64,000 nt of DNA from Latescibacteria bacterium UBA6620 (GCA_002433075.1 DJHM01000011.1:216522-280521), one strand, 5' to 3'; counted from the first letter of the stretch, positions 1 through 50,565 are shown. Program-made: numbers and translations. Notes: generated by a model from the sequence alone, not told the origin.

Positions 1-353
1 CGATAGTGCGGTTCGTGGACGTTCGGTGGCCGCGACTTGAACTCGGTCTGGGAGATCCGCACGTGAGGCTCGAGCATCGCCTGAGCGATACCCACCACGC
101 GATCGTCGCCGAAATACGCGGCCACCGACGGGATGTAGGTAACGACGCTCGGCCCCGGTTCCCCGTTCGGACCCTTCTGATGTCTCAGCAACCCGCCCCA
201 GGCCTCGTAGTCTTCGATCGCCCGCTGATTGCCCGCCACCACTTCGTCGCGGAGCGCCTCGATGCGATCCTGGGGAACGACATCCTCGACGAGGCACCAG
301 CCCTCCTTCTTCAGGTGGAGCACACTTTCTTCGATACTGCTCGACTTCCCCAT
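1..353 (-). CDS. PhyH-family (phytanoyl-CoA dioxygenase-like) 2OG/Fe(II) oxygenase, 5' part only (gene runs off window start)
   Basis: Manual reverse-complement translation from ATG (revcomp of cat 351-353): MGKSSSIEESVLHLKKEGWCLVEDVVPQDRIEALRDEVVAGNQRAIEDYEAW..., a typical PhyH N-terminus. No stop before the window edge, so it is absent from the ORF track. The overlapping + ORF 6..356 reads as Arg/His-rich wrong-frame translation. Confidence 0.5.
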   Translation of the reverse strand, partial: MGKSSSIEESVLHLKKEGWCLVEDVVPQDRIEALRDEVVAGNQRAIEDYEAWGGLLRHQKGPNGEPGPSVVTYIPSVAAYFGDDRVVGIAQAMLEPHVRISQTEFKSRPPNVHEPHY

Positions 354-483
354 TGAACGTCCTTGGTTGAAGCGAGACGACGAAGGCAACGGATACGGAG
401 CCACGTCGTGCCATTTGCCATTTAATCGGGGGGAGTTTCCCATCCCCGTAGAAGCCAGTAATGACGACCACAGACTCCTGATT

Positions 484-1647
484 CTACAGAGGCGTCACGT
501 CTTCCCAGCCACCGCTTTCCCAGGAACGCATCGTCGCCGCCAGTACGTTGGCGTAGGCGTAGGCCTGGGTCAGGCTCGCTGCTCCTTCCTTCCCATCGAC
601 AATAGACTTCAGGAAGTGGTAAGCCTCGATCGTCTTGAGGTCTTCGTAGCCCACGCCGACCCCCGGGCCGGGATTGAAACGACCGTGAAACGGATGCTCT
701 GGACCCGCCAGAATCCGGACGAATCCATCGTGGTCACCCTCATCGGACAGGTGAAGCTCCATCTCGTTCATCTGTTCGAAGTTCCACTTCAGCGCCCCTT
801 TGGTGCCATACACCTCGAGCGCCATTTCACACTGCGGCCCGAAGATCGTACGACTGACCTCGAGTGTGCCGCGCGCACCGTTCTCGAACTGGACCAGTGC
901 GCCGGCGTAGTCTTCGTTCGTCACCGCGCCTGTGGGGTCACCAGCCTTCCCCGTCGAAAAGTGAGTGCCTCGACCAGGAACGGGAAGGGGGCGCTCCTTG
1001 ATGAAGGTTTCCTCTGTTCCCATCACGCGAACGATCGGCCCCGCCAGGAACTGTGCCATATCCGCGACGTGGGGCATCAGGTCTCCCAGCGCGCCCGTCC
1101 CCGACTTCTCCTTCTCGAATCTCCAGGATAGCTGCGCCAGGGGATCGCTTGCGTACATCACGTAGAAACGGCCGTTGTAGTTTGTGATCTCCCCCAGTTT
1201 TCCGTCGACGATCAGTTGGTGGGCATACTGCACGAGCGGCGCCCAGCGGTAATTCACGCCTACGAAACTCAGCAGTCCCGCTGCTCGGGCAGCGTGATAA
1301 ACCTCGGCAGTCTCTTCCGGCGTGCGCCCGACAGGCTTCTCACAGAAGAGGTGCTTCCCGGCCTCGATCGCGGCAAGGGCCATTTCCCGGTGGAGAAAGT
1401 TCGGTGAGGCCACGTTCACGGCCTGAACATCGGGATGGTCGATCACGGCGCGCCAGTCGGTTGTCGACGCCTCGAATCCGAGCCTGGCCTGGGCTTCACG
1501 TGCCCGCGCCTCGACATCGTCCGCGCAGATGACCAAACGCGCGGAAACACCTCTGTTGTGAAACCGATCGCCGACGGCACGATAGGATCGGCCGTGCACC
1601 GTGCCCATCCAGCCCATTCCGATGACGCCGACACCTATTGTCGTCAT
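484..1647 (-). CDS. Gfo/Idh/MocA family NAD(P)-dependent oxidoreductase
   Basis: 387 aa; N-terminal Rossmann motif MTTIGVGVIGMGWMG...; SD-like AGAGGGTGA upstream of the ATG. Confidence 0.85.
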   Translation of the reverse strand: MTTIGVGVIGMGWMGTVHGRSYRAVGDRFHNRGVSARLVICADDVEARAREAQARLGFEASTTDWRAVIDHPDVQAVNVASPNFLHREMALAAIEAGKHLFCEKPVGRTPEETAEVYHAARAAGLLSFVGVNYRWAPLVQYAHQLIVDGKLGEITNYNGRFYVMYASDPLAQLSWRFEKEKSGTGALGDLMPHVADMAQFLAGPIVRVMGTEETFIKERPLPVPGRGTHFSTGKAGDPTGAVTNEDYAGALVQFENGARGTLEVSRTIFGPQCEMALEVYGTKGALKWNFEQMNEMELHLSDEGDHDGFVRILAGPEHPFHGRFNPGPGVGVGYEDLKTIEAYHFLKSIVDGKEGAASLTQAYAYANVLAATMRSWESGGWEDVTPL

Positions 1648-1730
1648 GAATCACCCTCTATTGAATCACAATCGCCATCAGACGTGTGCACCCTCCGGAC
1701 CTCTCCTTTTTCGACCATCCGGCATCAGAA

Positions 1731-2510
1731 TCAACTTGCCTTGAGGCTGTCAACCACGCCCGTTTTCACCAGATGTCTCTTGCCCCGATCAAAGGCATCG
1801 AGCAACATCCTCCCTCTTCCGTTACTCTTGAGAGCAACCGGATACTCGAGCGAGGCATCGAAAGCAGGAAGCTTCCTGTACCTCTCCTGCCAGCCCTCCT
1901 GCCCGAGGACATAGTCCCAAGGGCCCTCGTACCCGACCACACCGTCCAACCGTTTCTGCGACAGCATCACAAAAGCATCGACGATCGAACCCACCTCGTG
2001 CTTGCGAATCGACTCGGCCGCTTTCCATTGGTCACCGCAGTTGAATCCTCGCTTCACCCCGATCCTGTACCTAGCAACGGGCGCCAATCCATCCCATTCT
2101 ACGCTGTTATCTGCACGGACATAGACAACAAAATTGGCCTGGTTTGTCGGCTCTTCCGGGTAATCGAAAGCCCACTCTCTTTCCTGGTTCTTGCCTTCCG
2201 GGAACAGGATATCCGCCTTCCCCTGATTCAGGTAGCTCATCGCCCGGGCCCAGGGGACGACGAACAGTTGAATCGTAAACCCTTCCTGATGATAGCTCTC
2301 TCTCAGCACGTCCCAGCAGTTCCCGCCGAATCCCACGGCGTCGTCGCCAGATGGGATATTCTGATCTCGCTCGATGTTTTCCGACGCGCCGCAGAAAGGT
2401 GCATAGTCCTGCAGCCTAGCAACTCTCACGACCCTTTCCTCGGCCCCAGCCGGGATGCCGAGGAAAAGGACCAGGAGTCCAACGACCATAGACCCTGTCC
2501 ACGCTTTCAT
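1731..2510 (-). CDS. secreted solute-binding protein, family 3 (PBPb-like)
   Basis: 259 aa. N-terminal signal peptide (MKAWTGSMVVGLLVLFLGIPAGA) and SBP_bac_3-like layout (PWARAMSYLNQGKADILFP, RIGVKRGF, LDGVVG). Its stop abuts the start of the next gene, suggesting an operon. Confidence 0.55.
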   Translation of the reverse strand: MKAWTGSMVVGLLVLFLGIPAGAEERVVRVARLQDYAPFCGASENIERDQNIPSGDDAVGFGGNCWDVLRESYHQEGFTIQLFVVPWARAMSYLNQGKADILFPEGKNQEREWAFDYPEEPTNQANFVVYVRADNSVEWDGLAPVARYRIGVKRGFNCGDQWKAAESIRKHEVGSIVDAFVMLSQKRLDGVVGYEGPWDYVLGQEGWQERYRKLPAFDASLEYPVALKSNGRGRMLLDAFDRGKRHLVKTGVVDSLKAS

Positions 2511-3896
2511 TTATCCACCCGTCTCCTGCAGACGCTCCCATCGAGTCTGGAACTCAGGGCGATCCTTCCATTCGGGTATGAGTAGCTCGTAAGAGGGATC
2601 GAGCATCCAGTCGCGTCGTTCCGGATTGGGAACCGTAATCGTACCTTCCGTATAGTCCTCCCCGCGCAGACTGGCTTCGACCTCGAGGTTCCATTCGTCG
2701 TAGCGCTCCTTCATCTCTGCCACGCGGTCCGGCTGTGATTCAGAGAGGTCGGTTGTTTCCCGTGGATCGTCGGCAAGATCGAAGAGCTCCACATCGTCGC
2801 CCTTCACATCGCGCACAACGAGTTTCCGATCGTTGTCGACAAGCGCGCCGCCTCCGTTGTAACGGCAGGGAATGGGTACCTTTCTCGGTCCGAGCTCGTT
2901 TTGGAAAAGGGCATCGAGGCTCCGTCCGTCCTGGCGCTGAACCAGAACAGAATCGTCGATGCCGCAGACTTTGATAACGGTCGGGAAGATGTCCATCGTC
3001 GAAGCCGGATAAGACGTTCGGCGTGGATTCGGGATCCCCTTTGGCCATTCGATTACCGCAGGAACGCGGAGGCCGCCCTCATACAGCGTCCCTTTCCATC
3101 CCCTCAGCCCTCCGACCGTGGCAGGCCCGAACGGCTCGAGGCCACCGTTGTCGCTGTTGAACCAGACCAGAGTGTCCTCCTCGATCTGCAGCTCGCGAAG
3201 GGCCAATCTGAGGGCACCGATACTTCGATCCATCGCCACCAACTCGCCGTAGTGGTTCTGCTCGATGTCACTGAGTTGAGCGAAGTCGACCTTGTCGTCC
3301 TCTCCGGCAATCCACGGACTGTGGGGAGTCCCGTACCAGATCACTGTAAAAAATGGATTCCCCCTGGCGTGCTCTGTCCGGATGAAGTGGATCGCCTGTT
3401 CCATCGCCACATCCGACGAGTCGCCTTCGAATTCCTCGAACGAGCCCAGCCTGCTCATCAAGGGATCGCGATCGAAGAAATTCGTGACGGACAACCAGTG
3501 GTCGAACCCGAAGTGTCCAGGGTGCCTCGGATTCTCTTCCAGGATCGGCGCGCCAGGGCCCATAAACCCACTGAGATGCCATTTCCCGAAGTGGCCCGTC
3601 GAATACCACGCGCTCTGCATCGCCTGTGCGATCGTTTTCTCCTGAAGGCACAGGGGACAACCGTGACTGAACACCCCACACCGGTCGTTCGACCGACCGG
3701 TCATCACCGACGCACGGGTGGGCGAACAAACGGGTGCACCCGCGTAAAATCGGTCGAACCGGAGCCCGTTCCTTTCCATTGCGTCCAGGTTCGGGGTCTT
3801 CAGGATCGGGTGATCGTAATACCCGGTCTGGCCCCAACCCTGGTCGTCGCTCATAATGAGGACAATGTTGGGTCGGGTCGGGTGTTCAGGCATCAA
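2511..3896 (-). CDS. sulfatase (formylglycine-dependent arylsulfatase family), no signal peptide
   Basis: 461 aa. NIVLIMSDDQGWG motif and the C-x-P-x-R formylglycine motif (CSPTRASVMTGR). The N-terminus MMPEHPTRPNIVLI has no hydrophobic leader. Confidence 0.85.
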   Translation of the reverse strand: MMPEHPTRPNIVLIMSDDQGWGQTGYYDHPILKTPNLDAMERNGLRFDRFYAGAPVCSPTRASVMTGRSNDRCGVFSHGCPLCLQEKTIAQAMQSAWYSTGHFGKWHLSGFMGPGAPILEENPRHPGHFGFDHWLSVTNFFDRDPLMSRLGSFEEFEGDSSDVAMEQAIHFIRTEHARGNPFFTVIWYGTPHSPWIAGEDDKVDFAQLSDIEQNHYGELVAMDRSIGALRLALRELQIEEDTLVWFNSDNGGLEPFGPATVGGLRGWKGTLYEGGLRVPAVIEWPKGIPNPRRTSYPASTMDIFPTVIKVCGIDDSVLVQRQDGRSLDALFQNELGPRKVPIPCRYNGGGALVDNDRKLVVRDVKGDDVELFDLADDPRETTDLSESQPDRVAEMKERYDEWNLEVEASLRGEDYTEGTITVPNPERRDWMLDPSYELLIPEWKDRPEFQTRWERLQETGG

Positions 3897-3917: not shown

Positions 3918-4178
3918 CTATTGCCTGGTACCCATCACGATCGCGGCGCCAAGCGAGATGCCCAGCGAGGTCCCGAGCCCCATGTTGTCGATTGCGGCGC
4001 CTACCGCCGCTCCCACGGCCAACCCGACCCCGGCTCCCAGCGCGATGCCCATCGATACGGAGCTTCCGTCATCCGGTTCCTGTTCGTCATTACGATCGTC
4101 AAAAGACACGTCGTCCCCTCCCGTTGGCTGACACGGGGCGAGCCTCGAATGACTCCAACCGCTGATGTGGACCACCAA
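3918..4178 (-). CDS. small glycine-zipper membrane protein (hypothetical)
   Basis: 86 aa ORF with an acidic N-terminal segment then MGIALGAGVGLAVGAAVGAAIDNMGLGTSLGISLGAAIVMG (GxxxG repeats). It sits between a PhyH gene and the sulfatase. The true start may be the internal Met. Confidence 0.35.
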   Translation of the reverse strand: MVVHISGWSHSRLAPCQPTGGDDVSFDDRNDEQEPDDGSSVSMGIALGAGVGLAVGAAVGAAIDNMGLGTSLGISLGAAIVMGTRQ

Positions 4179-4190: not shown

Positions 4191-5003
4191 TCAGGAGGTA
4201 CGGGTGTAAAGCACCGGAAGATGTTCGTCGTCGGCAAGTACGTCGCCGACTTTCGTGCGAGCCACGACCTCGTCCGGCAGCGCACTCTGCTTGCCGTTGA
4301 AAGTGGCATCCTCCGGCATAAAGAGCAATGCAAAGGCCCGTCGAGGCTGCAACGTCATATTCGGCCCCGCGGCGTGAGCAACCAGACCGCTGATGAAGAT
4401 CCCTGACCCAGCCTCCACCTCAACTGGCTGCGGCTCGATCTCCGACCACTCCGGGTAGCTGTCTATCAGACGACCGATGCCCTCCTCACCCAGCGTGCCA
4501 CTCTCGTCGAACCGGCACGTCTTCTGAGAACCGGGCAGGAAGTAGAGACATCCGTTCTGCAACGTCGCATCGTCGAGGGCAATCCACAGCATCGTGGCCT
4601 GGCTCGAATGGAACAGGTCCATCGGGTTGTCGACGTGGAAGTTGGTGGGATTCGACCACGGTTCCTTGGTGAGCGCGTGGTCGTGATACAATCGAACCCC
4701 CGTCGACCCCGAAACTTCTGTTGCCAGTTTACCCAATCGTTCGTCCAGGACCAGCGCCCTGACTGATTCGTGGGTCTTCCAAAGGTTGACACACTGTACG
4801 AAAACTCCCGAATAGTAGCTGTCGTTCGCCTGGTTGTGGCGCACGACACGGCTGGATGGATCTCGATCCACCATCTCCGCGACGGCCTCGTCGACCGCCT
4901 GTCGCCAGATTCTCAACTCATCCGGATCGAGCAGGTCCGGCACGACCAGGTAGCCATCCCTCCGGTAGCTCCCAGCCTCTTCCCTGGTCAGCGTGGTCCG
5001 CAT
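4191..5003 (-). CDS. PhyH-family 2OG/Fe(II) dioxygenase
   Basis: 270 aa; PhyH-like N-terminus (YRRDGYLVVPDLLDPDEL) and overall family resemblance. Confidence 0.8.
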   Translation of the reverse strand: MRTTLTREEAGSYRRDGYLVVPDLLDPDELRIWRQAVDEAVAEMVDRDPSSRVVRHNQANDSYYSGVFVQCVNLWKTHESVRALVLDERLGKLATEVSGSTGVRLYHDHALTKEPWSNPTNFHVDNPMDLFHSSQATMLWIALDDATLQNGCLYFLPGSQKTCRFDESGTLGEEGIGRLIDSYPEWSEIEPQPVEVEAGSGIFISGLVAHAAGPNMTLQPRRAFALLFMPEDATFNGKQSALPDEVVARTKVGDVLADDEHLPVLYTRTS

Positions 5004-5006
5004 GTC

Positions 5007-5624
5007 TCAGACGCCTGTGTCGAACCACTCACCCCGATCTTCCGCTTGGGAGTAGCTCGGATTCTTGATTTTGATCCAGGGCGTTCGCCCATTCACCTGT
5101 CGGTAAGGGCTGTCCCGGGGTTTCGCCACGATGCCTTCCATATACCGCTCGCAGATCATTCCAAACAGGTCGACCCCATCGCCTTCGATATGATCCACAA
5201 AGTGCAGGCGGGGTGCTCCGCCTTCGACCAGTTCCTTCAGCACACCCTTCCGCTCGATACACGGCTTCTCACGTAGACCTTCACCATCCAGCAGCAGGAT
5301 GTCGAAAGCAAAGAAAACAACGGGGGCGCGTGCGGCCATCAGATCGTCGAATTGCGATACGCCCCGATCGTCGACACAAACGAGTTCACCGTCCAGAACC
5401 GCCTGCCGCGTCATTCCGGACAGTGCGCTCGAAACCTGCCGAAATCGATGGAACGCGTGCCGTTTCGTGAAACGAGCCGGCACGTACCGTCGCCAATGTC
5501 GGCAAGACTTCGGAAGCCGTCGTATTTGACCTCGAACAGCCATCCCGGGTCGTCGAACGGATCCGACTGCTTGATCAAGGGGAGGGGCGTGATGATGATG
5601 ACGTCCCCGAGTTCGAACCCGCAA
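5007..5624 (-). pseudogene. ATP-dependent DNA ligase (LigC/LigD ligase-domain type), frameshifted
   Basis: The C-terminal two-thirds of the ORF match the ligase OB/adenylation C-terminal region (AVLDGELVCVDDRGVSQFDDL, EGIVAKPRDSPYRQVNGRTPWIKIKNP). The N-terminal part of the ORF is Arg/His-rich wrong-frame translation. The true N-terminus (PLPLIKQSDPFDDPGWLFEVKYDGFRSLADIGDGTCRLVSRNG, motif I KYDG) is in a different minus-strand frame covering about 5411-5578. A ±1 frameshift lies near 5440-5460. Confidence 0.55.
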
Positions 5625-6637: not shown

Positions 6638-7834
6638 ATGTCTGCTCAGGATACTCCAGCCCCAGCCGAGCCAGCGAGCTCCTACCGTGCTCAGGCCTTC
6701 GCAGATTCCAAACCCGAACTGTCTGCTCCCGGTGCCACACCGGAGCGTCTGGCTCACCTCGAGGAACACGGATTCGTCATCATCACAGACTTCGTCGGAA
6801 ATCCCTGGATCGACATCCTTCGCGAGGCCGGCCGCAGAGTCACCGAAGCCTGCGCACCCGAAAACGGCTACGACAGAATCGACTACTCCAGGGGCTACGT
6901 GCATCGCGCCAAGGGGGACGAGCCCTGGGCGATCCGCGGTCTGGTGCATCCTGCCTTCGGCGAGCCCTCCTTCGCTGAATTCCACGGTTCGGATGACTTC
7001 CTCGGGTTCGTGGACTCCTGGTGCGTCGATGGTCTCAAACCCGACGAGATGACGATGGGCAACCTCCTCCTGTGGTGCAATCCACGAAAGCGCGAGAATC
7101 AACTCAGCTGGCATCGCGACGTCACGTGGTGGGGCACCGGAAAGCCGTATTTCTCGCAACATGAGGTTCGTGGGGATAGCGTGGAAGACTACTCCGAGGA
7201 GGTCGAACGAGCCAGATGGGAGGAAATTCGTGCGGACAACGTCAAGTCGCTCACCGAACGCAACGGCGTCAGTATGTTTCTCGCCCTGGCCCACGACGAG
7301 TGCCACGAACTCATTCCAGGGTCGCACGATCGCTGGCGGACTCCCTTCGAACACGACGTGTTGCTCCCGCAGAAAATGAAGGACGCCGGGGTGCCGCATA
7401 CGCCGAGCTGGAACGGCGAGGACCCGTTGCCGGGTCAGGTCGCCATTCGCCTTAAACCGGGGGAAGCGCTCATCCGTAACGGAACGACCATCCACACGGG
7501 CCGCACCGTCCCCGATCGCGAGCGGAACACGCTTTCGATCGGATGGTCCAGGTGGTCGGGTCCTTTGGACGAGGAGCCGTCCACCGCCGACGCTCGCCAC
7601 GCCTGGCAACTGGATCCTGCCGTTCGCGAAGCAATGCCTCACGACTGGATGAAGGTTGCGTGGGATCGCTGGGCGGAAACGAAGAAACTGGGTGAAACGC
7701 TCGAGGATCGATACGCAGGCTGGGACATCCAGAAGATCAAGGCGGGCGACGTGGTAGGATGGCGAACGGAGCTGGAGAAACAGGCTGCGGCGGCGGGAGA
7801 TTCCTGGGAGGCGTTTCAGACGGTGGAAGAATAA
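6638..7834 (+). CDS. divergent PhyH-superfamily-like 2OG/Fe(II) oxygenase with a C-terminal extension
   Basis: Start chosen at MSAQDT (GGAG 5 nt upstream). WHRD (HxD) and a distal His (IHTGRTV). It is a paralogue of 49417..50565; the two share long blocks (ILREAGRRVTEAC, EPWAIRG, PGSHDRWRTPFEHDVLLP, WDRWAET). Confidence 0.5.
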   Translation: MSAQDTPAPAEPASSYRAQAFADSKPELSAPGATPERLAHLEEHGFVIITDFVGNPWIDILREAGRRVTEACAPENGYDRIDYSRGYVHRAKGDEPWAIRGLVHPAFGEPSFAEFHGSDDFLGFVDSWCVDGLKPDEMTMGNLLLWCNPRKRENQLSWHRDVTWWGTGKPYFSQHEVRGDSVEDYSEEVERARWEEIRADNVKSLTERNGVSMFLALAHDECHELIPGSHDRWRTPFEHDVLLPQKMKDAGVPHTPSWNGEDPLPGQVAIRLKPGEALIRNGTTIHTGRTVPDRERNTLSIGWSRWSGPLDEEPSTADARHAWQLDPAVREAMPHDWMKVAWDRWAETKKLGETLEDRYAGWDIQKIKAGDVVGWRTELEKQAAAAGDSWEAFQTVEE

Positions 7835-7871: not shown

Positions 7872-8888
7872 TCAAGCCCCCTCCCAGACCTCGCCGAACA
7901 GGCGTAGCCAGTTCCCTCCCAGGATGCCTGTGATCTCCTCACCCGAGTAGCCGCGACGCTGCAGACCGCTCGCCAGATTTGGCAATTCGTCGGGGCTCGT
8001 GAGATCGTCCGGATACAGCTTGTACTCTTCCCACTTCACGTTCGGATCCTGGAACACGGCCGGATACGATGTGCCCTGCTGCGAACCGATGTATCGCCAG
8101 AACGATTCAGGCTGATCCTGCGTGAAATCGATACCGAACCCGACGTGGTCGGGCCCAATCCGCTGAACCATATCGTCGATCGCATCCAGGTAATCGTCCA
8201 GTGTGGACTCGAACTGCGTCTTCAGGAAAGAGCAGATGGCCGTCGCGCCCACAACGCCCCCCCGTTCCGCCAACAACCTGACCGCTTCGTCGGTCTTGTT
8301 GCGTGGGCGATCGAAATAGCCTTTGCAATTCGCGTGGGTGACCGCGACCGGCTTTTCCGAATGTTCGATGGCCTCCATCGTCGATCGCTCACCGACGTGA
8401 GACAGATCAATCAGGATTCCCAGTCGGTTCATTTCCCGTACGGCATCGCGACCGAAATTGCTCAACCCCGCGTTCGCGCTCTCGTAGCATCCATCTGCCA
8501 GCAGGCTGCGCTCGTGAAACGAAAGCTGGATGATGCGGACACCCAGCGCGTGGAACACGGCCAGATGGCCGAGGTCGTTCTCAATGGGCGTGGCGTTTTG
8601 GAAACCGAGAATGACTCCCACCCTGCCCGTCTCCTTCGCCCGAAGAATGTCCGAGGTCGAATGGATGGGCATCAGAAGGTCCTCGTACGTCTCGTATCGG
8701 CCTAACCACGCCTGAATCTCCAGCAGAGTCTCCTGATAGTTTTCCCACGTCGCGATCGTTGCGTTCATAGCCGTCACACGGCCGTTCCTCAGACTCTCGA
8801 ACACACCCGGGCTGTTCCAGTTGCTGACGTTCAGCCCGTCAATCACGATAGCTCGATCGTAAATCGAGCGGGCATCTTCCTTGCTCAT
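7872..8888 (-). CDS. membrane dipeptidase, peptidase family M19
   Basis: Start at MSKEDARSIYDRAIVIDGL; M19 motifs (VIDGLNVS, EMNRLGILIDLSHVGE, PVAVTHAN). Confidence 0.8.
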   Translation of the reverse strand: MSKEDARSIYDRAIVIDGLNVSNWNSPGVFESLRNGRVTAMNATIATWENYQETLLEIQAWLGRYETYEDLLMPIHSTSDILRAKETGRVGVILGFQNATPIENDLGHLAVFHALGVRIIQLSFHERSLLADGCYESANAGLSNFGRDAVREMNRLGILIDLSHVGERSTMEAIEHSEKPVAVTHANCKGYFDRPRNKTDEAVRLLAERGGVVGATAICSFLKTQFESTLDDYLDAIDDMVQRIGPDHVGFGIDFTQDQPESFWRYIGSQQGTSYPAVFQDPNVKWEEYKLYPDDLTSPDELPNLASGLQRRGYSGEEITGILGGNWLRLFGEVWEGA

Positions 8889-13991: not shown

Positions 13992-14025
13992 TGAGTCATT
14001 GCTCCCGCACGTGTCATATCACGAA

Positions 14026-40858: not shown

Positions 40859-41740
40859 TCAGTCGCGGTCTGCAAATACGGCGGAAAGCACATCTCGAGC
40901 ATATCGAACCATACCGGGATTGGTATCCCGATAGTAGGGAAGCGCGATGACAGCAATGGACAGCGCCCACCCTCGACCTCTGGCCCAGGTCGCATCGTCC
41001 ACCGATGTAGCCGCTTGAAATCGGTCTCGATCCTCGGGTGTGAGCAGATCCCACGAGACGATCAGATCGCAGGCGGGATCGCCGACACCCAGCCCTCCGA
41101 AATCGAGAACGGCTGTGATCTCATCTCCGACACGAAGCAGGTTGTCGGACTTCAAATCCCCGTGAATCCAGAGATCCGGCCCCGTCCACGGTGGCGCCTC
41201 GAGGGTCCTCTCCCAGGCCTCCGTGGCCATAGAAGTGTCGATCGTGTCGTTCAGGCCATGAATCGAGCGACGCGTCTGTTCGTCCCGATCCGCCAGTGCA
41301 ACACCGCGGAAGAAGTTGTGCGATCCCGGACCGAGTCCACCGCTTGGATCCAGCCCGTGCCGAATGCGTACAAAGTGCCCAAGTGACGTTGCTACGTCGC
41401 GGGGATCTACCCCTCGTCGCGAGCTCGCCCTCGACGAGGGGTAGATCGACCACGGTAACGGACATCCTTCGGCGGGCTCGCCCCTCGCAACGGGGATCGG
41501 GACCGCCAGCGGAAGCGCGGGACCCAGTATGGGCATCCAGCAGTGGAGCTTTTGGACCTGCTCCGCCGCGTGAGGTCTCCGAGACAGTCGTACGACCCTC
41601 TTCTGTCCGAGTCGATAGAGCGTGTTCTCCGTTCCAGCGGAGGACACCGGCTCGAGAGTCAGATCGGACCACTGCGGGAACTGCGTCTCGATCAATCTCC
41701 GGACGAGAGCCACATCGGTGAAAATCTCGTCCGCGTGCAT
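40859..41740 (-). CDS. aminoglycoside/choline-kinase-type phosphotransferase (APH family)
   Basis: 293 aa; IHGDLKSDNLL catalytic loop, DFGGLGVGDP (DFG-like). Confidence 0.7.
   Translation of the reverse strand: MHADEIFTDVALVRRLIETQFPQWSDLTLEPVSSAGTENTLYRLGQKRVVRLSRRPHAAEQVQKLHCWMPILGPALPLAVPIPVARGEPAEGCPLPWSIYPSSRASSRRGVDPRDVATSLGHFVRIRHGLDPSGGLGPGSHNFFRGVALADRDEQTRRSIHGLNDTIDTSMATEAWERTLEAPPWTGPDLWIHGDLKSDNLLRVGDEITAVLDFGGLGVGDPACDLIVSWDLLTPEDRDRFQAATSVDDATWARGRGWALSIAVIALPYYRDTNPGMVRYARDVLSAVFADRD
41404..41447. repeat. 44-bp palindromic element in-frame within the APH gene (16-bp arms GATCTACCCCTCGTCG / CGACGAGGGGTAGATC)
   Basis: Perfect inverted 16-mers flank a 12-nt spacer containing the palindrome CGAGCTCG. 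The element encodes IYPSSRASSRRGVD. Confidence 0.6.
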
Positions 41741-41882
41741 CCTGCTGGCAGATCCTATCCTGTCGTCCCCCTATGGACCCTGGTCAATGTCGGCAAACTT
41801 TCGACAGCCGAGGCGGTTCTGCTTCCGCAGCAACGGGTGTGTCGCAAACTCATCTCCAGCAACGTCATCACAGGCAGGTGGT

Positions 41883-43496
41883 CTAGGAGGCGAAGACCGC
41901 TGATCCGCCGTCCCTGCGTGGATCCGAAGCAGCGCGAAAGCCGTCGGGTTCCATGAGGATGCATTGAGCCCTCCCGAAAGAGGGGGCGTAGTTATAGGGC
42001 AACTGTTCGACCTGCATCCCCCGGTCACGCATGGAAGCCACGGTAGCCCGGGGAATCCGCATCTCACAATACACAGGCTGTCCTTCGCTGTGGAAACGCG
42101 CCGCCGAAACGGCCTCAGTCGGCGCCATCCCGAAGTCGATGACATTGACCAGGGTCTGCAGGACGGCGGAAGTGATCGACCAGCCTCCCGGCGCCCCGAG
42201 GATCATGACCGGCTTCCCGTCCCGAAAGACGATCGTTGGTGACACAGCGCTCGCACGCGCTCTCCCCGGCAGGTAGGAGTTAGGTCGCCCGGGCACGGGG
42301 TCCATCAACGCCACACAGTCGTTCCAGAACGTTCCCGTGCCGGGAACGACAACTCCGCTGCAGGTCGTCAGCGTGTGGGTGATGGAAACGCAGTTGTTGT
42401 TTTCGTCGGCAACGCATAGATGGGTCGTGTGACCCGGCGCGTTGAGTGCCGTCTGATCGGGCAACTCACCCCGTCGTATCCGATCTGCGATCTTCTCGGC
42501 GTGCTCTTCGGAAAGAAGCTCTTCGGCAGGCACATCCCAGAACCGAGGATCGGCCAGGTGCCTGAATCGTGTCACCCCCGCCCAGGAGAGCGTTGCGGCA
42601 ACGATGTAGGCGTGCTCCGGACCGTTCGGCTCGAGAGACGACAAGTCGAAGAGACCAAGCACATTGAGCATCTGCTGCAGCAAGAGTCCCCCGCCCGGCA
42701 GCGGAGAGGTTTGTATCTGGCAATCCCGGTACGACCCCTGAATCGGAGGATCGTTCCGCACATGATAATCATTCAAGTCGTTCCGCGTAACGAAGGCGTC
42801 ATTCTCTTCGAAGTCTCGGATGATGATGTCGGCCAGCTCCCCGTGATAGAAATCATCCGGGCCGTACCGTGCCAGTCGTTCGAAGGTGCGTCCCTGATCG
42901 GGATTGCTGTAGCGTTCGCCACGTTCGATAAGCTCCCCATCGGCATTCTGCCACAGTTCACGGATGGCTGGCGTGTGTTGGGCACGACGAACTGGATGCG
43001 GCAGTCCCTGGATCGTCTGCTCCCGCAAGGAGCGGGCGATGTACTCGGGGACGGGGTAACCTCGGTCGCTCCATTCGATAGCCGGCTTCAGAAGCTCAGC
43101 CAGAGGCCGGGTGCAGAAGCGCCGATGCAGCTCCCCCAGTCCGGCGACCGTACCCGGCGTCATGATCGCCTGGTAACCGAGGATATTTCGAAAATCATCG
43201 AACAGTGCGAAGTGCCAGATGTCCGTATAACCCTGTACATCGTCGGTCCAGATTTCCGGGTGCATCCTCTCGCCGATCGTCGGCCAGAACCCGATGCTTT
43301 CCGTCGTGGAGGTCGACGCGTCGTAGACGGTCGCACACCCCCAGCCGCCGAGCCCACACATGAACGGATCGAACACGATCTGGGCCGCCGCGGCGGCCAC
43401 GGCTGCATCGAATGCGTTCCCTCCACCTTCGAGCACGCGTGCCCCGATTTCGGTGGGGATGGGTTGGGGTGCGACGACAGCTCCTTTCACACCCAA
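41883..43496 (-). CDS. ggt: gamma-glutamyltranspeptidase family protein
   Basis: 537 aa; GGNAFDAAVAAAAA, catalytic Thr region TTHLCVADENNN, GGxxI. Confidence 0.85.
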   Translation of the reverse strand: MGVKGAVVAPQPIPTEIGARVLEGGGNAFDAAVAAAAAQIVFDPFMCGLGGWGCATVYDASTSTTESIGFWPTIGERMHPEIWTDDVQGYTDIWHFALFDDFRNILGYQAIMTPGTVAGLGELHRRFCTRPLAELLKPAIEWSDRGYPVPEYIARSLREQTIQGLPHPVRRAQHTPAIRELWQNADGELIERGERYSNPDQGRTFERLARYGPDDFYHGELADIIIRDFEENDAFVTRNDLNDYHVRNDPPIQGSYRDCQIQTSPLPGGGLLLQQMLNVLGLFDLSSLEPNGPEHAYIVAATLSWAGVTRFRHLADPRFWDVPAEELLSEEHAEKIADRIRRGELPDQTALNAPGHTTHLCVADENNNCVSITHTLTTCSGVVVPGTGTFWNDCVALMDPVPGRPNSYLPGRARASAVSPTIVFRDGKPVMILGAPGGWSITSAVLQTLVNVIDFGMAPTEAVSAARFHSEGQPVYCEMRIPRATVASMRDRGMQVEQLPYNYAPSFGRAQCILMEPDGFRAASDPRRDGGSAVFAS

Positions 43497-43529
43497 TCTC
43501 CTGGTCGAAAAGTCATGTCGAACTCCTCG

Positions 43530-44390
43530 CTATAGAACCGTACGGTCTCTGGAACGCCCGTCACACACGAGCCGGCCGCTATGGTAGGTACCCTGCATAC
43601 ATCGGTCACGCCACGCGACAGATGCATCGTAGCAATTCACGGCAGGATCGATGTCGGTCACGAGCACACCAGGCCTGTGGGTGCGGGCCTTGTTGACAAT
43701 CCAACCCTCTGGATCGATGACGAGGTTGGGCCAGGCGTACTTTCGGGTACCGTTATTTGCGCTGACCCAGTAGTAATTGCTCGCGGCGGCAGCCTGCAGC
43801 GTTGCGGGCACCGACATCAGATAGTGTCTGTACTGCTTCGCAGTCATGTTGGCGTTGTGGAAGGAAACGAGCATCAACTGCACCCCTCGTTTCTTGTATT
43901 CCCTGAAGAGCTCCGGATAGCGGAAGTCGTGGCAAATCAACAGACCGCACTTTACCTCACGCAGAGTAAAGGTGACAAGGTCGGAACCCGGACTGTAATG
44001 TTTCAAGTCGCCGGTGTTGTCACTCGATCCCGTACAGAACAGCTTGTCGTAGCGTGTCTCGATGCGGCCCTTTTCGTCGATGACATACAGGGAATTGTGA
44101 GGCTTGTGTTCGCCCGTCAGTCGATGATTGGCGCCCAGAACGACACTGAGGCCCAGTTCGCGGGCAAGCTCCCTGACTGCCTCCACGCACTCCCGCACCT
44201 CGTCCCAATCAGTCTCCGACACGGATTTCAACTCGGCGCCCAGATACCCCGTCAGACAGGCCTCCGGAAAGTGGATGAGATGGGCCTCCCTCCGCTTCGC
44301 GGTCCGCATATGACGGACAATGCTGGCTATATTGCGACCTGGGTGTTTCTCGACCTGGAACTGGCTGGTTGCCAGTCTGAGTTTGGGCAT
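43530..44390 (-). CDS. carbon-nitrogen hydrolase (nitrilase superfamily)
   Basis: 286 aa; E-K-C triad context (FPEACLTGY, LLICHDFRYPE). Confidence 0.8.
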   Translation of the reverse strand: MPKLRLATSQFQVEKHPGRNIASIVRHMRTAKRREAHLIHFPEACLTGYLGAELKSVSETDWDEVRECVEAVRELARELGLSVVLGANHRLTGEHKPHNSLYVIDEKGRIETRYDKLFCTGSSDNTGDLKHYSPGSDLVTFTLREVKCGLLICHDFRYPELFREYKKRGVQLMLVSFHNANMTAKQYRHYLMSVPATLQAAAASNYYWVSANNGTRKYAWPNLVIDPEGWIVNKARTHRPGVLVTDIDPAVNCYDASVAWRDRCMQGTYHSGRLVCDGRSRDRTVL

Positions 44391-44544: not shown

Positions 44545-46062
44545 CTACACCCCGTTCAATCCCAATCGCACCCGCTGTTCGGGAGGCGCTTTCAATCGGG
44601 CCAGCTCTTCCCGCAGTCTATCCTGCATTGCCTTGAGCTGGTCCGGCTGTTCTTCCACGAGGTTCACCAGTTCGTTCGGGTCGGCTCTCTTGTCGTGGAG
44701 CGAAGTCGGGTCCGGCCAGGTCCTGCCGTCCCCGACCGCTCGCCGACCCTCCTCATAGGGCCCGAGTTCGTAGCGAACGAATCGCGCAAGATGGTATCCG
44801 TACCAGTAGAGCGGCTGATTCTCCTCGGTCGGCGACTGATGAAGGGTCCACGTTCCGTCTGTGATGGACACGCTCTTGCCAAACATGCCCATCAGCGCGA
44901 CGTCTCGTGTCCGGGCAGTCGAATCTTCCAGAACAGGAAGCAGATCGATCCCGTGCAGGGGTCGCTCCGGCGGCATTTCGGGCAACGACCTGCCGACTGC
45001 CGACAAGACAGTGGGATAAATGTCTATCAGCTGGACCAATTGGTCACGCCGCTCGCCGTGTCCCATCTCCGGGTGGCAGACGATGAAAGGGATGTGCGCG
45101 CAGCCGTCATACTGGTGCGTGTTCAGCTTCCCCGTACGACCGTGATCTCCGTTCCAAGTTCCGTGATCGGTCGTGAAGATCAACAAGGTGTCTCGCCACA
45201 GGTCCAGCTCATCCATTTTGTCGAAGATCACGCCCAGCCATCGATCGAGAAAGACAACCTTGGCCGCATATCGGGCGCGCATGTTGTTGAACTGTTCATC
45301 GTTGTAGTGGTCGCGCCACGGCGCATACGGGGCTCCCGCACGCAGGCCTTCCACCGCATACCCCTTGGGATCGAACTGCTTCAGAATCGCCTCCGGCGGA
45401 TCCCAGGGCTCGTGAGGGTCGAAGATGTCGAGATGGAGGTAGAAGTCTTTATGTTCGCGGTTGCGCTGGAGCCAATCCGCAGCCTTGCTGCAAACCTGGG
45501 CGCAGAAGTAGTCCTCTTCGCTCTGGCGAATGAAGTGGACGTTGCGCCAATGACGTTCGTTTTTCCCCAGTCGATCGCCCTCCGGACACGGGAAGTCTAT
45601 CGGATCCGTGTAGAGCGCGTCGCTTTCGATGCCCCGCACGAATTCGAAACCCGTATAACCCATATGGTAGTTTCCCGAACCCTGTTCCCACAGATGGAAG
45701 TGGTCCGTCAGCAGGCAACTCACACGGTCGCCTTGCTCCATCATGAGTTGCACCGAGCGGTTGGGTGGCCCCGAGACCTGCCGCGGCAGGTCTCGATCGT
45801 CCTCTTCCAACGGTCCCCAGCCACGTTCGAGGAACTCGAGACGGCCGGTGTAGATGTCCCGGCGAGCGGGCATGCACGGAGTGGACCCGATGTAGGCGTT
45901 GTCGAAAACCGTACCGCGGTCGATCAGGCGATCCAGGTTGGGTGTCGGAACGGACCAGGACGGAGCCTCTTTGCTCCAGCATTGGTCGAGAGGTTTTCCG
46001 CCGTTGTAGGCGCCGACGTGGTCGCGACGCAAGGTGTCACAGAGAATGGTGATGACGTTCAT
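44545..46062 (-). CDS. sulfatase (formylglycine type), no signal peptide
   Basis: 505 aa; MNVITILCDTLRRDH, C-x-P-x-R (STPCMPARRDIYTG). Confidence 0.85.
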   Translation of the reverse strand: MNVITILCDTLRRDHVGAYNGGKPLDQCWSKEAPSWSVPTPNLDRLIDRGTVFDNAYIGSTPCMPARRDIYTGRLEFLERGWGPLEEDDRDLPRQVSGPPNRSVQLMMEQGDRVSCLLTDHFHLWEQGSGNYHMGYTGFEFVRGIESDALYTDPIDFPCPEGDRLGKNERHWRNVHFIRQSEEDYFCAQVCSKAADWLQRNREHKDFYLHLDIFDPHEPWDPPEAILKQFDPKGYAVEGLRAGAPYAPWRDHYNDEQFNNMRARYAAKVVFLDRWLGVIFDKMDELDLWRDTLLIFTTDHGTWNGDHGRTGKLNTHQYDGCAHIPFIVCHPEMGHGERRDQLVQLIDIYPTVLSAVGRSLPEMPPERPLHGIDLLPVLEDSTARTRDVALMGMFGKSVSITDGTWTLHQSPTEENQPLYWYGYHLARFVRYELGPYEEGRRAVGDGRTWPDPTSLHDKRADPNELVNLVEEQPDQLKAMQDRLREELARLKAPPEQRVRLGLNGV

Positions 46063-48359: not shown

Positions 48360-48841
48360 TGTAGAGGAGCTGAGATGGAGGGGAGCTGGAGACTGTTTCA
48401 AGGTGTGGGTGGAGCAACTGGGCATGACAAGCTTGCCGCCGGTTCCCAGCTCCTCCTGAATTGAACCCGCCGATATATGCCGAAGGACTCAGATTCGACC
48501 CTGAACACCGAGGTTGGTTCTGAGAAAACAGTTACGGTTGCGACTGAACCTGAATGGTTCCTCCGCCATCTCTCAGATCGCCTCCTCCGAAGTAAAGAGG
48601 TGGATCGGATGCTGAACGCCTGAGTTGAAAATTGATGAAATCTTCCCTGCCGTATCGGTCGCCATCGCGAAGGGTAGCAAAGAAGAAGATGGATACCGAC
48701 CCCCCGGCTTTTCGGTGATCACTTCACACGCGCCGTCGAGTGCCAGAACCATTTGGACGGGGACTTCCTTGACAACGATCCATCTGAGGGGACTACCCTT
48801 CCCTTTCACCCTCAATTGGCGCCCTGACAAGCCCAGTTCGC

Positions 48842-49174
48842 TCAACGCCGCAGCGGCGAATCCAGAGCCGTGATCGACAGCGTGAAAGTTAGCATCGATG
48901 CCAGCCGGCCCGCTCTGCGCAAGCTGACATTGAAGTTGATATATGCGCTACCGAATCCGTTGAATGGCGACATGACCGTATAGCCTGCGCCGCTGGCTAT
49001 GACCGGGCTGCTGGCAGCTCGTTTACTTAAGACACGATTCTCTTCGGGTGCAGTTGGTTGAGTCATTTGATCAGAACACCCGACAAGAGCAATAGTCGCG
49101 CAGAGAAGAAAGGGAATAGAAACAGGAACGGTCACGTGGGTACCTTTCACTTTAAGAGCTGGTCTGGCTGTCAT
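48842..49174 (-). CDS. putative lipoprotein
   Basis: 110 aa; signal peptide with lipobox (LLCATIALVGC|S). Lower-GC region. A second ORF (48573..48845) overlaps by ATGA and may be a continuation. Confidence 0.3.
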   Translation of the reverse strand: MTARPALKVKGTHVTVPVSIPFLLCATIALVGCSDQMTQPTAPEENRVLSKRAASSPVIASGAGYTVMSPFNGFGSAYINFNVSLRRAGRLASMLTFTLSITALDSPLRR

Positions 49175-49416
49175 CTTTGTTCGGCCACATTCACCCTAGC
49201 AAGCGCATCACAGTGCCAGGACGACGACTCCTCGAGTCATAGGCACGTCCATGAGCTTGTTCCCGGCCATTACCCGACTCACCAACAGCTCTACACATAC
49301 GAAGGAATATAGGTCAAGTTGGTCTCATCCTTGTAATCCACACAAAGTTGCTCAACCCGCTTTGGTGTAGGCCAAAAGCTTGTTTCCGCCGACTGACAGA
49401 GCCCGGCATCAGGCCC

Positions 49417-50565
49417 TTACTCACCCGAGTCCTCACCCGCTGCTGCAGCCTGTTTCTCCAGTTCGCCTCTCCACCCCACGACCTGCCCTGACTTGATGTT
49501 CTTGATGTCCCATTCCGCGTAGCGATCCTCGAGCGTATCCCCGAGTTTCTCCGTCTCCGCCCATCGATCCCACGCGGTCTTCATCCATTCGTGAGAAAGC
49601 GCTTCGCGAACGGCCGGATCGTGCTGCCAGGCCCAACGCGCGTCGGTTACTTTGGGCTCACCCTCGAATGGACCGTCCCATCTTGACCAGCCGATGGCCA
49701 GCGAATTGCGCTCGCGACCAGGCACCGTGTGGCCGGTGTGAATGTTCGTGCCGACCCGAATCAAGGCCTGCCCCTCCTTGAGCCGCACCGCGGTCTGGCC
49801 GGGAATCGGACTCTCCCCATCCCAGCTGGGCGTGTGAGGCACACCCGCTTCCTTCATGGTTTTGGGTAACAGGACGTCGTGTTCGAACGGCGTTCGCCAT
49901 CGATCGTGGCTTCCGGGAACGATCTCGTGGCACTCGTCGTCTACCAGGGCTAGGAAGATGCCCACACTGTCTCGCTTTTCGATCTGTTTGTGGTTCCGCT
50001 CCCGAATCTTCTCCCAAGCCACCCTCTCGGCCTCTTCAGAATACGCCTCGGGATCCGGAGGCCCGCCCTCCTGGGAATTTCCGCGCTCGCCCTCCCCCCA
50101 CCAGACCGCATCTCGATGCCATCCGAGCCGGTGTTCGTGCTTTGGATTGTTGCACCAGAGCAGGATCGTGGTAAGTGTCGTGTCTTCCGGCCGCAGACCG
50201 TCGCACCAGCCCTCGACGAACGCCGTGAACTCTTCGGAGCCTTGGAACTCGGCGAAGGAGGGCTCGCCGAACGCCGGATGAATGATTCCGCGGATCGCCC
50301 ACGGTTCGTCCTCCTCCGTTCTATGCACATATCCCTTCGACGTATCGATCACGTCGTAGCCCTTCTCCGGCCGACACGCTTCGGTCACGCGACGGCCCGC
50401 TTCACGCAGGATGGGGATCCAGTCGCTACCGACGAAATCATCGATGATGACGACGCTCGTCTCCCGCAGAGCATCGAGACGGGCCTCAGTGGCCCCCTTG
50501 CCTGACCATTCGGGCTGGAAATCAATGAACGCAGGGGCGCGATAGACGGTAGTGGAACCGGCCAT
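49417..50565 (-). CDS. divergent PhyH-superfamily-like oxygenase (paralogue of 6638..7834)
   Basis: 382 aa; WHRD, IHTGHTV; long identical blocks with 6638..7834. Confidence 0.5.
   Translation of the reverse strand: MAGSTTVYRAPAFIDFQPEWSGKGATEARLDALRETSVVIIDDFVGSDWIPILREAGRRVTEACRPEKGYDVIDTSKGYVHRTEEDEPWAIRGIIHPAFGEPSFAEFQGSEEFTAFVEGWCDGLRPEDTTLTTILLWCNNPKHEHRLGWHRDAVWWGEGERGNSQEGGPPDPEAYSEEAERVAWEKIRERNHKQIEKRDSVGIFLALVDDECHEIVPGSHDRWRTPFEHDVLLPKTMKEAGVPHTPSWDGESPIPGQTAVRLKEGQALIRVGTNIHTGHTVPGRERNSLAIGWSRWDGPFEGEPKVTDARWAWQHDPAVREALSHEWMKTAWDRWAETEKLGDTLEDRYAEWDIKNIKSGQVVGWRGELEKQAAAAGEDSGE

Follow-up and report, generated by a model that had tools for sequence, protein, structure and literature searches.

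A dense set of old, divergent PhyH-family oxygenase genes among dehydrogenase, sulfatase and transport genes in a Latescibacteria genome

The stretch of DNA analysed here, called the window, comprises 64,000 nucleotides (nt) from Latescibacteria bacterium UBA6620 (GCA_002433075.1 DJHM01000011.1:216522-280521), with positions counted from its first letter. It carries twelve genes of the PhyH/TauD superfamily of Fe(II)- and 2-oxoglutarate (2OG)-dependent oxygenases, eleven of the PhyH family and one of the TauD/TfdA family, exactly as an original prediction made from the sequence had listed them. Pfam scans covered all plausible open reading frames (ORFs) of the window, and the cut-off for PF05721 (PhyH) was 22 bits. 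The twelve genes, which are cited below by their first coordinate, are as follows.

1-353, minus strand: N-terminal 117 codons of a PhyH protein of 293 amino acids (aa), clade III, WHSD...H...R; the remainder lies left of the window.
4191-5003, minus strand: PhyH, clade I, FHVD...H...R; PF05721 114 bits; 41% identical to 12105.
6638-7834, plus strand: long PhyH, clade IV, WHRD...IHTG...R with a helical tail of ~100 aa; PF05721 21.8 bits, just below the cut-off.
8926-9579, minus strand: short PhyH, clade III, YHRD...H...R; PF05721 86 bits; best match in the PDB, SptF (6e-13).
10769-11749, minus strand: TauD/TfdA-family 2OG oxygenase, WHTD...H; PF02668 175 bits.
12105-12911, minus strand: PhyH, clade I, WHQD...H...R; PF05721 126 bits; best PDB matches SnoK (7e-23) and SnoN.
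24805-25605, minus strand: PhyH, distant member of clade I, WHRD...H...R; PF05721 95 bits; best PDB match EvdO2 (4e-7).
27294-28121, minus strand: HygX-type PhyH, clade II, LHGG at residues 111-114 and E194-x3-H198; PF05721 53 bits; HygX 4e-9.
34002-35273, minus strand: PhyH of 423 aa, clade III, WHTD...H...R, with an N-terminal extension and an acidic tail; PF05721 41 bits; no match in a PDB sequence search.
36699-37493, minus strand: second HygX-type PhyH, LHGG and PEALAHG; PF05721 59 bits; 37% identical to 27294.
39869-40783, minus strand: PhyH akin to clade II yet with a canonical WHPD; PF05721 47 bits; best PDB match HygX (4e-6).
49417-50565, minus strand: second long PhyH, clade IV, WHRD; no Pfam match, assigned by family alignment and structure model.

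Most of these copies do fall in the PhyH family rather than in unrelated ones, as eight genes pass the PF05721 cut-off at 41-126 bits. The gene at the left edge has no Pfam match as a fragment and is 25% identical to 34002-35273 (BLAST E 1.6e-11); its full form, complete on a longer Tara scaffold (L074 11295-12176; fetched loci carry such L numbers), scores 48 bits and has WHSD...H...R. A phmmer search against all window ORFs of at least 70 aa revealed no hidden further PhyH copies. The G+C content is even across the window, at 0.57-0.62. The gene order recurs in independent NCBI, JGI, ENA and Logan assemblies, and thus the gene patch is not an assembly artefact. On the ENA Tara Oceans scaffold TARA_SAMEA2622823_METAG-scaffold_20 (355,771 bp), the window occupies ~214,521-278,520, as derived from the position of gene 484-1647, and its genes are also present in two contigs of the metagenome-assembled genome (MAG) GCA_002346595.1 and in a JGI Tara metagenome.

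In a joint alignment, the distal histidine and an arginine ~10 residues later are found in every full-length PhyH copy. Nine copies read HxD...H...R, and two (27294 and 36699) read H-x-G with E-x3-H...R. The expectation of an HxD...H triad throughout therefore holds in part: the metal- and 2OG-binding residues are intact in all copies, but 27294 and 36699 carry LHGG and not HxD. Since these two use a known HxG...E-x3-H variant, their catalytic sites are altered in form and not absent. With its catalytic residues in place, the set of eleven PhyH copies is, judged by sequence, supported as Fe(II)/2OG oxygenases.

The two variant copies, which are those with the 'MTDRE(R/K)YLFD' motif, read TEALTHG (27294) and PEALAHG (36699) at the E-x3-H site. 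Gene 27294 has ~3,000 homologues. Among 30 of them (43-80% identity), no variation is seen at L111, G113, G114, E194, L196, H198 and G199, and hardly any at H112; LHGG together with E-x3-HG was also seen in the sequences of 8 relatives from other loci. A review of orthoester biosynthesis describes the site of HygX in the same terms, as 'H-X-G ... E-X3-H' with the acidic ligand relocated (PMC13374393). HygX, the hygromycin B orthoester synthase (PDB 4XC9, 4XCA, 4XCB, 4ZPI), is the closest solved relative of 27294 by sequence (E 4e-9). The predicted structure of 27294 (pLDDT 86, pTM 0.88) agrees with this, as its top 16 Foldseek matches are all HygX (E 1e-19, TM 0.69/0.76, 25% identity), and it also matches SptF, SnoK and others. 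Thus 27294 and 36699 have the N-terminal motif, the H-x-G...E-x3-H site and the fold in common with HygX. The substrate of HygX is a glycoside. HygX, however, is a biosynthetic enzyme of Streptomyces, whereas these copies occur in catabolic contexts, with relatives in operons of sulfatases, GH78 glycoside hydrolases and ABC transporters. A third HygX-type copy (MDDLERLEYVFDIQGYLVI…RLHGG) is encoded in the same genome at L077 21204-21566, ~10 kb to the right of the window. At least three members of the clade, therefore, lie within 85 kb.

The replacement of H-x-D by H-x-G could also bring 2OG-dependent halogenases to mind. In SyrB2, WelO5 and BesD, the loss of the carboxylate ligand opens a site for halide, and seawater is rich in halide. 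Weak matches to the 'chlorinating enzyme' model were obtained for 4191, 12105 and 24805, and to SyrB2 and CytC3 for 12105; these, however, are HxD-type genes of clade I and not the HxG copies. The invariant glutamate four residues before the distal histidine mirrors the relocated carboxylate of HygX, an oxygenase/cyclase, and the surrounding genes are catabolic, with carrier proteins and biosynthetic genes absent. A halogenase role for the two HxG copies is hence scarcely credible.

The two long copies, 6638 and 49417, are 66% identical and have 366 homologues at 65-82% identity, several of which carry precomputed PF05721 matches. In an alignment of 20 members of this family, H150-x-D152, H276 and R286 never vary, and the family profile found no solved structure by sequence. 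The AlphaFold model of 49417 is of moderate quality (pLDDT 62.5, pTM 0.68, with the catalytic loops low); it matches EvdO1, AviO1, KanJ, EctD and FtmOx1 at probability 1.0, with TM values of only 0.32-0.62. From the alignment and the model, these genes are best seen as a PhyH subfamily of their own, uncharacterised but strongly conserved, that falls below the Pfam threshold. As far as the literature was searched, such a subfamily uncalled by Pfam is new.

An all-against-all BLAST of the window copies separates four deep groups, in line with the proposal of at least three sub-clades. Clade I includes 4191 and 12105 (41% identical) and, distantly, 24805; clade II includes 27294 and 36699 (37%) along with 39869 (25%), which has the canonical HxD; clade III includes 34002, the 1-353 gene and 8926 (25-28%); and clade IV includes 6638 and 49417 (66%). 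Only three pairs exceed 30% identity (41%, 37% and 66%), all others being below 30% or undetectable. Relatives in other genomes are far closer, reaching 75-86% for 12105, 82% for 49417, 80% for 27294 and 72% for 4191, so the PhyH paralogs must be old. The orthologues of 12105 (75-86%) come from MAGs labelled with the NCBI names Candidatus Latescibacterota or 'Gemmatimonadetes bacterium RS821', and 49417 has a relative at 78% identity in a likewise labelled MAG. By these names the organism is a probable marine relative of Latescibacterota, an assignment by association and not by phylogeny. The term of an extreme local expansion, used in the original prediction, misleads in the light of this comparison: the copies are ancient paralogs, mostly <30% identical, never adjacent to one another and with their nearest kin in other genomes, and they do not represent a recent amplification. 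Other paralog families of the window (GFO/IDH/MocA, MR_MLE, CN-hydrolase and a three-member unannotated family) are equally divergent, at 23-29%.

The density of the family is nevertheless high, as 11 PhyH genes occur among ~59 genes (19%) of the window, compared with ~1 in 20 genes in its two 10-kb flanks. In three loci around 49417 relatives from other assemblies, four further PhyH genes were found in ~60 kb, and the loci around 27294 relatives have one to two additional copies each. Overall, the flanks and the seven sampled loci of related assemblies contain ~one extra PhyH per 10-20 kb, and another Tara MAG has 5 PhyH genes on a 7.3-kb contig. In most other phyla, the 20-kb loci of 12105 relatives hold the seed gene alone or one more PhyH. 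The binomial probability of the observed count is 7e-4 at a background of 6% and 1e-8 at 1.9%, the share given for Poribacteria, with no correction for the window having been picked for this very feature. We read the window as a local maximum of PhyH genes in a lineage that is PhyH-rich throughout, and not as a recent tandem amplification.

A similar wealth of these genes has been reported for Poribacteria, where PF05721 is the most abundant protein family, with >1.9% of genes and a largely unknown function, and where 305 sequences form 193 clusters at 60% identity (Kamke et al. 2014, PMC3909097). Poribacteria resemble the present organism in being PhyH-rich uncultured marine heterotrophs with divergent copies and many carbohydrate-degrading genes. 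They differ in lineage, and >1.9% is a genome mean whereas ~19% of genes is the local value in the window; further, their report contains neither a HygX-type clade nor a linkage to sulfatases or GH78 (PMC3909097). Another comparable group is SAR202, pelagic heterotrophs with many old paralogs of enolase-superfamily enzymes, dehydrogenases and oxygenases, which two papers take to widen the range of oxidisable dissolved organic compounds (PMC6946804, PMC10444878). SAR202, however, is another phylum, and a search of the two papers for the term 'phytanoyl-CoA dioxygenase' gave no occurrence. The enolase, SDR and oxygenase paralogs had at first suggested a SAR202 origin for the window, which was rejected on the labels of the closest relatives.

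The PhyH genes of the window are nowhere adjacent to one another. Nine of them (four, two and three copies) are counted within three co-directional strings on the minus strand with short gaps; 6638 and 49417 stand apart. The genes that surround them are given below.

484-1647, minus strand: GFO/IDH/MocA oxidoreductase (PF01408, PF22725, PF02894), co-directional with the flanking PhyH and sulfatase genes.
1731-2510, minus strand: solute-binding-protein-like gene, weak SBP_bac_3 match, signal-peptide-like N-terminus MKAWTGSMVVGLLVLFLGIPAGA; gapless junction to the sulfatase (2510/2511).
2511-3896, minus strand: Cys-type S1 sulfatase, CSPTR, leaderless; PF00884 163 bits, domain from residue 9.
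7872-8888, minus strand: M19 dipeptidase, 338-aa gene call; PF01244 274 bits; last in the 13-gene minus-strand string 20415-7872.
9673-10593, minus strand: DHDPS-family lyase; PF00701 147 bits.
12954-20415, minus strand: GFO, enolase-superfamily (MR_MLE) and SDR genes, then four GFO/IDH/MocA-type ORFs, by Pfam; gaps of 19-61 nt or overlaps.
35409-36680, minus strand: FAD-dependent oxidoreductase (DAO family) between two PhyH genes; PF01266 222 bits.
37538-39814, minus strand: amino-acid permease fused to Usp domains; PF13520, PF00324, PF00582.
40859-44390, minus strand: APH-type kinase, gamma-glutamyltranspeptidase (GGT) and CN-hydrolase, by Pfam; within the string 46062-33184, gaps of 18-154 nt.
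44545-46062, minus strand: second Cys-type sulfatase, CMPAR, leaderless; PF00884 100 bits, domain from residue 2; opens the string 46062-33184.

The first string (6356 to 1 and beyond) runs through a methyltransferase, a ligase remnant, PhyH 4191, a small ORF and a sulfatase, and continues with the binding protein, a GFO gene, PhyH 1-353, a 767-aa protein and, beyond the left edge of the window, a third sulfatase. The ligase piece (5007-5624), 3 nt upstream of PhyH 4191-5003, holds no more than the C-terminal portion of the adenylation domain of an ATP-dependent DNA ligase (135-aa gene call) and is probably a remnant. The small ORF (3921-4112, minus strand), located between PhyH 4191-5003 and the sulfatase, has 63 codons, is Gly/Ala-rich (…GIALGAGVGLAVGAAVGAAIDNMGLG…) and is also a gene call in the Tara scaffold; it may encode a small membrane protein. 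The second string (20415 to 7872) contains four GFO-type ORFs, an SDR, an enolase-type gene, a further GFO gene and PhyH 12105, followed by a 103-aa ORF, the TauD/TfdA gene, the DHDPS-type gene, PhyH 8926 and the M19 dipeptidase. Its 103-aa ORF (11760-12071, minus strand), between PhyH 12105 and TauD/TfdA, has no Pfam match and is called in four assemblies of the same sequence (L001-L004). In the same string, the ORF at 17108-18316 (minus strand) shares 248 nt with the GFO gene that comes next (18069-19238) and has only a weak GFO C-terminal match with a low-complexity N-terminus; its start may have been set wrongly, or it may be a degraded gene. The third string (46062 to 33184) begins with a sulfatase, a CN-hydrolase, the GGT, the APH kinase and PhyH 39869, and ends with the amino-acid permease-Usp fusion, PhyH 36699, the DAO gene, PhyH 34002 and Fpg.

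Overall, the neighbours of the PhyH genes are GFO/IDH/MocA and SDR dehydrogenases, enolase-type dehydratases, a DHDPS-type lyase, transport proteins and hydrolases, the last being sulfatases, CN-hydrolases, the M19 dipeptidase and the GGT. Housekeeping genes (Fpg, a 5'-3' exonuclease and a sigma factor) are scattered between them, and a signal-peptide-like start was observed in one gene only (1731-2510). The best PDB matches SnoK, HygX, EvdO and SptF might be taken to indicate a natural-product biosynthetic cluster, as most solved relatives of the PhyH copies tailor antibiotics or meroterpenoids. The window, however, has no polyketide synthase, nonribosomal peptide synthetase, terpene synthase or glycosyltransferase genes, and its hydrolases, dehydrogenases and permeases with interspersed housekeeping genes speak against a biosynthetic cluster, which we consider extremely improbable.

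Two formylglycine sulfatases had been predicted among the oxygenases, and both are borne out by PF00884 scores of 163 and 100 bits and by the C/S-x-P-x-R motifs CSPTR and CMPAR. They are also, as proposed, predicted to be cytoplasmic, the domain starting from residue 9 in one and residue 2 in the other, with no upstream start codon in the open frame; a stop codon just upstream of 2511-3896 leaves no room for a leader. The only PhyH gene of the window directly beside a sulfatase is 4191. Among the relatives of 4191 (56-72% identity), no sulfatase was present within 6 kb at 16 metagenome loci, where an SDR and further PhyH copies recur. The long subfamily, represented by 49417, had no conserved neighbours in three genomes and no sulfatase nearby.

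The order of the second string is absent in the closest relatives of 12105 (L005-L007), which have no neighbours in common with it. Only the PhyH-TauD pair recurs, in L008, with both genes interrupted. In this locus (L008 8394-13218, on the 8.4-Mb Latescibacterota chromosome OZ240241.1), each gene of the orthologous pair is split by an insert of ~1.4-1.6 kb. Across a broader range of 12105 relatives, 17 of 69 loci have a sulfatase within 10 kb, and 15 of these 17 are labelled Caldilineaceae, Caldilineales or Anaerolineales. A conserved co-directional cluster of the Caldilineaceae lineage contains SBP_bac_5, PhyH, AhpC, a xylose-isomerase-like TIM barrel, a lactonase, a sulfatase, a DHDPS-type gene, a second PhyH and GFO. 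One example is L024 7891-17960, with a PhyH 54% identical to 12105, a 7-bladed lactonase and a leaderless sulfatase; 14 further Caldilineaceae/Anaerolineales loci are of this kind. The names of several source MAGs suggest a sponge origin.

For 27294, six relatives (56-77% identity) from other assemblies were sampled (L098-L103). They are embedded with S1 sulfatases in four of the six loci, with GH78 in three and with MalK-type ATPases in two. In L098, the PhyH gene is followed after 25 nt by a sulfatase disrupted by an insertion sequence (IS), and a second sulfatase and two more PhyH genes are present; the left-flank sulfatase of the window is 58% identical to the sulfatase beside this PhyH. 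Transposases (Transposase_mut, IS66, DDE_Tnp_1) surround the PhyH gene of L098 (2080-13300), one of them interrupting the adjacent sulfatase. In L100, the order is sulfatase, PhyH and a convergent sulfatase (gaps of 13 and 33 nt), along with a GH78-type gene and an enolase. Two loci (L101 2037-10015 and L102 2015-10160) share an operon in which a fusion of polysaccharide deacetylase and GH78 rhamnosidase is joined by an S1 sulfatase, a tandem pair of HxG-type PhyH genes and a MalK-type ABC ATPase. Its genes are separated by -4 to 60 nt in L101, and a further, divergent sulfatase is located upstream of it. The sulfatase of L099 is 7 kb from PhyH. L103 has no sulfatase and includes a sugar-type ABC transporter, an SDR, a second HxG copy, MalK, enolases, DHDPS and GFO.

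In the loci fetched from other genomes, a sample that is small and seeded, a sulfatase lies within 0.5 kb of 4 of 12 HxG-clade ORFs and of 0/107 ORFs in clade I, 0/7 in clade III and 0/3 in clade IV. The 767-aa protein beside the left-flank sulfatase was also considered as a possible GH78 enzyme and was rejected, as it has only a weak Ig_Rha78A_N match and BLAST did not match it to the GH78 genes in L100/L101. A literature search for PhyH together with sulfatases, rhamnosidases or Latescibacteria yielded nothing beyond the Poribacteria paper; within that search, the recurrent operon linkage of HygX-type PhyH, sulfatases and GH78 rhamnosidases is new. The proposal of enzymes for sulfated substrates, thus, stands only in part. 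Relatives of the HygX-type genes and of 12105 do lie by sulfatases, which makes a sulfated-sugar role plausible for part of the set, but in the window only 4191 is sulfatase-adjacent and this arrangement is not conserved.

In L098 and L100-L102, PhyH genes stand directly beside Cys-type sulfatases. This allows another thought, that such PhyH proteins are maturation enzymes which hydroxylate the beta-carbon of the active-site cysteine to give formylglycine in cytoplasmic sulfatases. The net reaction would be chemically feasible, and neither FGE (PF03781) nor a radical-SAM maturase is among the window genes scanned. A maturase could, however, be encoded elsewhere in the genome; tandem PhyH pairs occur, and L103 is without any sulfatase. 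The fold and the nearest relative HygX, further, point to a pocket for a sugar-sized small molecule. Such a role is thus very unlikely.

The original prediction had leaned on AtsK, a TauD-family enzyme, and proposed that the PhyH/TauD set hydroxylates the carbon bearing a sulfate ester in glycans or lipids, from which sulfate leaves without hydrolysis. This chemistry has precedent in AtsK and Rv3406, which form SulfAtlas family S2 in the TauD/TfdA superfamily; membership asks for >=30% identity to AtsK over ~300 residues, an HxD/E...H site and placement in the AtsK clade (PMC5066984). In the window, the likeness is limited to the TauD-family fold and the HxD...H site (WHTD with a C-terminal histidine) of 10769-11749. 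Among PDB sequences, this gene scores 125 (5bke) and 117 bits to TfdA-like proteins, ~90 to RdpA-type ones, 76 to TauD and 68 to AtsK (rank 14). It reaches 98 bits for the taurine dioxygenase equivalog, against a cut-off of 313, and its Tara annotation is K06912 tfdA. Both the score ranking and the annotation point away from S2. As AtsK is of the TauD family and the eleven PhyH genes are of another Pfam family, the precedent does not transfer to them by homology, and for the sole TauD-family gene the order of scores speaks against it.

Oxidative desulfation by the set has some further points in its favour. The HxG-clade relatives are tightly linked to sulfatases, and the abundant GFO/SDR reductases could reduce a keto-sugar product. 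There is also an analogy within the PhyH family: KanJ, one of the fold matches of 49417, removes an amino group oxidatively from a sugar carbon and leaves a ketone. Nevertheless, the literature search found no PhyH-family sulfate-ester oxygenase, nine of the eleven PhyH copies have no sulfatase as a direct neighbour, and relatives in clades I and IV are never directly beside one. Hydrolytic sulfatases are present in the same operons, making a second desulfation route unnecessary, though not impossible. By analogy, oxidative desulfation by any of the copies would be chemically reasonable, but the data neither require nor indicate it. A whole battery of such enzymes is, in our view, decidedly unlikely.

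Since PhyH genes and sulfatases are both abundant, their co-occurrence may be merely regional, the PhyH proteins acting instead on amino-acid derivatives, osmolytes or phosphonates in the manner of EctD, amino-acid hydroxylases and PhnY. The amino-acid permease, the DAO gene, the GGT, two CN-hydrolases and the M19 dipeptidase are all suggestive of this, as is the lack of sulfatases near the relatives of 4191 and 49417. PhnY-like PhyH copies are also known from Poribacteria (Kamke et al., PMC3909097), and the best NCBIfam matches, though weak, are methylphosphonate hydroxylase (59-69 bits against 500) and ectoine hydroxylase (<=39 against 336). No PhyH copy, however, reaches the cut-off of any NCBIfam equivalog. 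An identity as EctD (<=39/336) or PhnY* (<=69/500) was accordingly rejected. Moreover, the window Pfam scans found no HD-phosphohydrolase (PhnZ) or ect genes, and the HxG-clade operons are tight, with gaps of -4 to 60 nt to sulfatase, GH78 and MalK genes. We regard this account as possible for the region, though clearly less likely than the one favoured here.

The reading that we prefer, with a probability of roughly 0.6, is that the copies are old and distinct cytoplasmic Fe(II)/2OG oxygenases of a PhyH-rich lineage, each recruited to a different small catabolic module. As the prediction had also held, they do not constitute a single pathway, being spread over different modules with different neighbours. 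Each enzyme would use 2OG and O2 to activate a C-H bond of a different imported small molecule. The hydroxylation would give the dehydrogenases, dehydratases and lyases encoded nearby access to a position that is otherwise inert or to a carbon with a substituent. For the HygX-type clade (27294, 36699), the most likely substrates would be imported sulfated, rhamnose-containing oligosaccharides or monomers, handled along with cytoplasmic S1 sulfatases and GH78 enzymes. The products would feed a non-phosphorylative sugar-acid route, for which the window has GFO/SDR dehydrogenases, amidohydrolase_2 as a possible lactonase, enolase-type dehydratases and a DHDPS-type enzyme; the Pfam matches are observed, and the assignment to this pathway comes from general knowledge of the families. 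For the copies by the permease, DAO, GGT and dipeptidase genes, amino-acid-derived substrates seem more likely.

Enzymes that modify sugar moieties, namely SnoK/SnoN, HygX, EvdO1/2, AviO1 and KanJ, are the solved proteins nearest to clades I, II and IV. In SnoK/SnoN, the Evd enzymes and AviO1, and KanJ, the chemistry on carbohydrate carbons includes epimerisation, cyclisation and oxidative deamination. By sequence or structure, clades I and IV match SnoK/SnoN, EvdO1/EvdO2/AviO1 and KanJ best; these enzymes are, however, remote (13-25% identity, E 1e-23 to 1e-6) and tailor secondary metabolites. Such relatives are compatible with carbohydrate substrates and, at 13-25% identity, only suggestive.

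Several observations weigh against the preferred reading. Substrates are assigned throughout from the neighbouring genes, since no characterised enzyme is close to any of the copies. Gene 27294 itself is not sulfatase-adjacent in the window, the neighbourhoods of 12105 and 4191 are unconserved in their closest relatives, and the long subfamily is without any conserved neighbours. Only six loci of 27294 relatives were sampled, and two of them, L101 and L102, may not be independent, as they share one arrangement. The picture of a hot spot within a rich genome, similarly, is based on ~20 kb of flanks and seven loci of related assemblies.

A more far-reaching proposal is that the HygX-type clade represents a new class of carbohydrate-active oxygenases, with which marine bacteria act on intracellular sulfated rhamnose-containing sugars by an AtsK- or KanJ-like reaction on glycans. 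A ring carbon bearing a sulfate, O-methyl or amino group would be oxidised, the group would leave and a keto-sugar would form, which the abundant GFO/SDR enzymes would then reduce. An anionic substituent would find room thanks to the glycine at the carboxylate position, and the other clades would be position- or substrate-specific variants of the same strategy. This we hold to be unlikely.

Every gene belongs to a known family, and the striking PhyH count reflects an expansion of a known kind, extended here to another lineage that is pelagic and Latescibacterota-like. A large pool of carbon in the sea consists of sulfated polysaccharides, and these are viewed as being broken down by purely hydrolytic or lytic means, through glycoside hydrolases, lyases and S1 sulfatases. 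The operons of GH78, sulfatase, two PhyH genes and MalK, together with gene 27294, provide concrete candidates for a link between PhyH and sulfated sugars. If PhyH enzymes do take part in glycan breakdown, models of how algal glycans are turned over would need O2- and 2OG-dependent steps. Such a part would also go some way towards explaining the hundreds of PhyH genes in several uncultured marine and sponge-associated phyla, a puzzle since 2014.

Two other features of the window lie outside the PhyH strings. At 55100-57380, all that is present of purH (AICARFT/IMPCHase) is a set of short pieces, namely a 178-aa window ORF and gene calls of 81 and 91 aa in L077. The non-coding stretches around it, 450 and 1291 nt, are unusually long, and purH has the look of a gene in decay. 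Further, a family of three paralogs is encoded at 21297-22844 (minus strand), 61818-63383 (plus strand) and 63634-64000 (plus strand; 484 aa when complete, at L077 11823-13277). They have no Pfam or PDB sequence match, are 24-29% identical in pairs and have a common N-terminal '(R)KQLF[ILV]DD' motif. One of them is weakly similar to the GH32-like gene 59857-60882, and the three may form an unannotated glycoside-hydrolase-like family.

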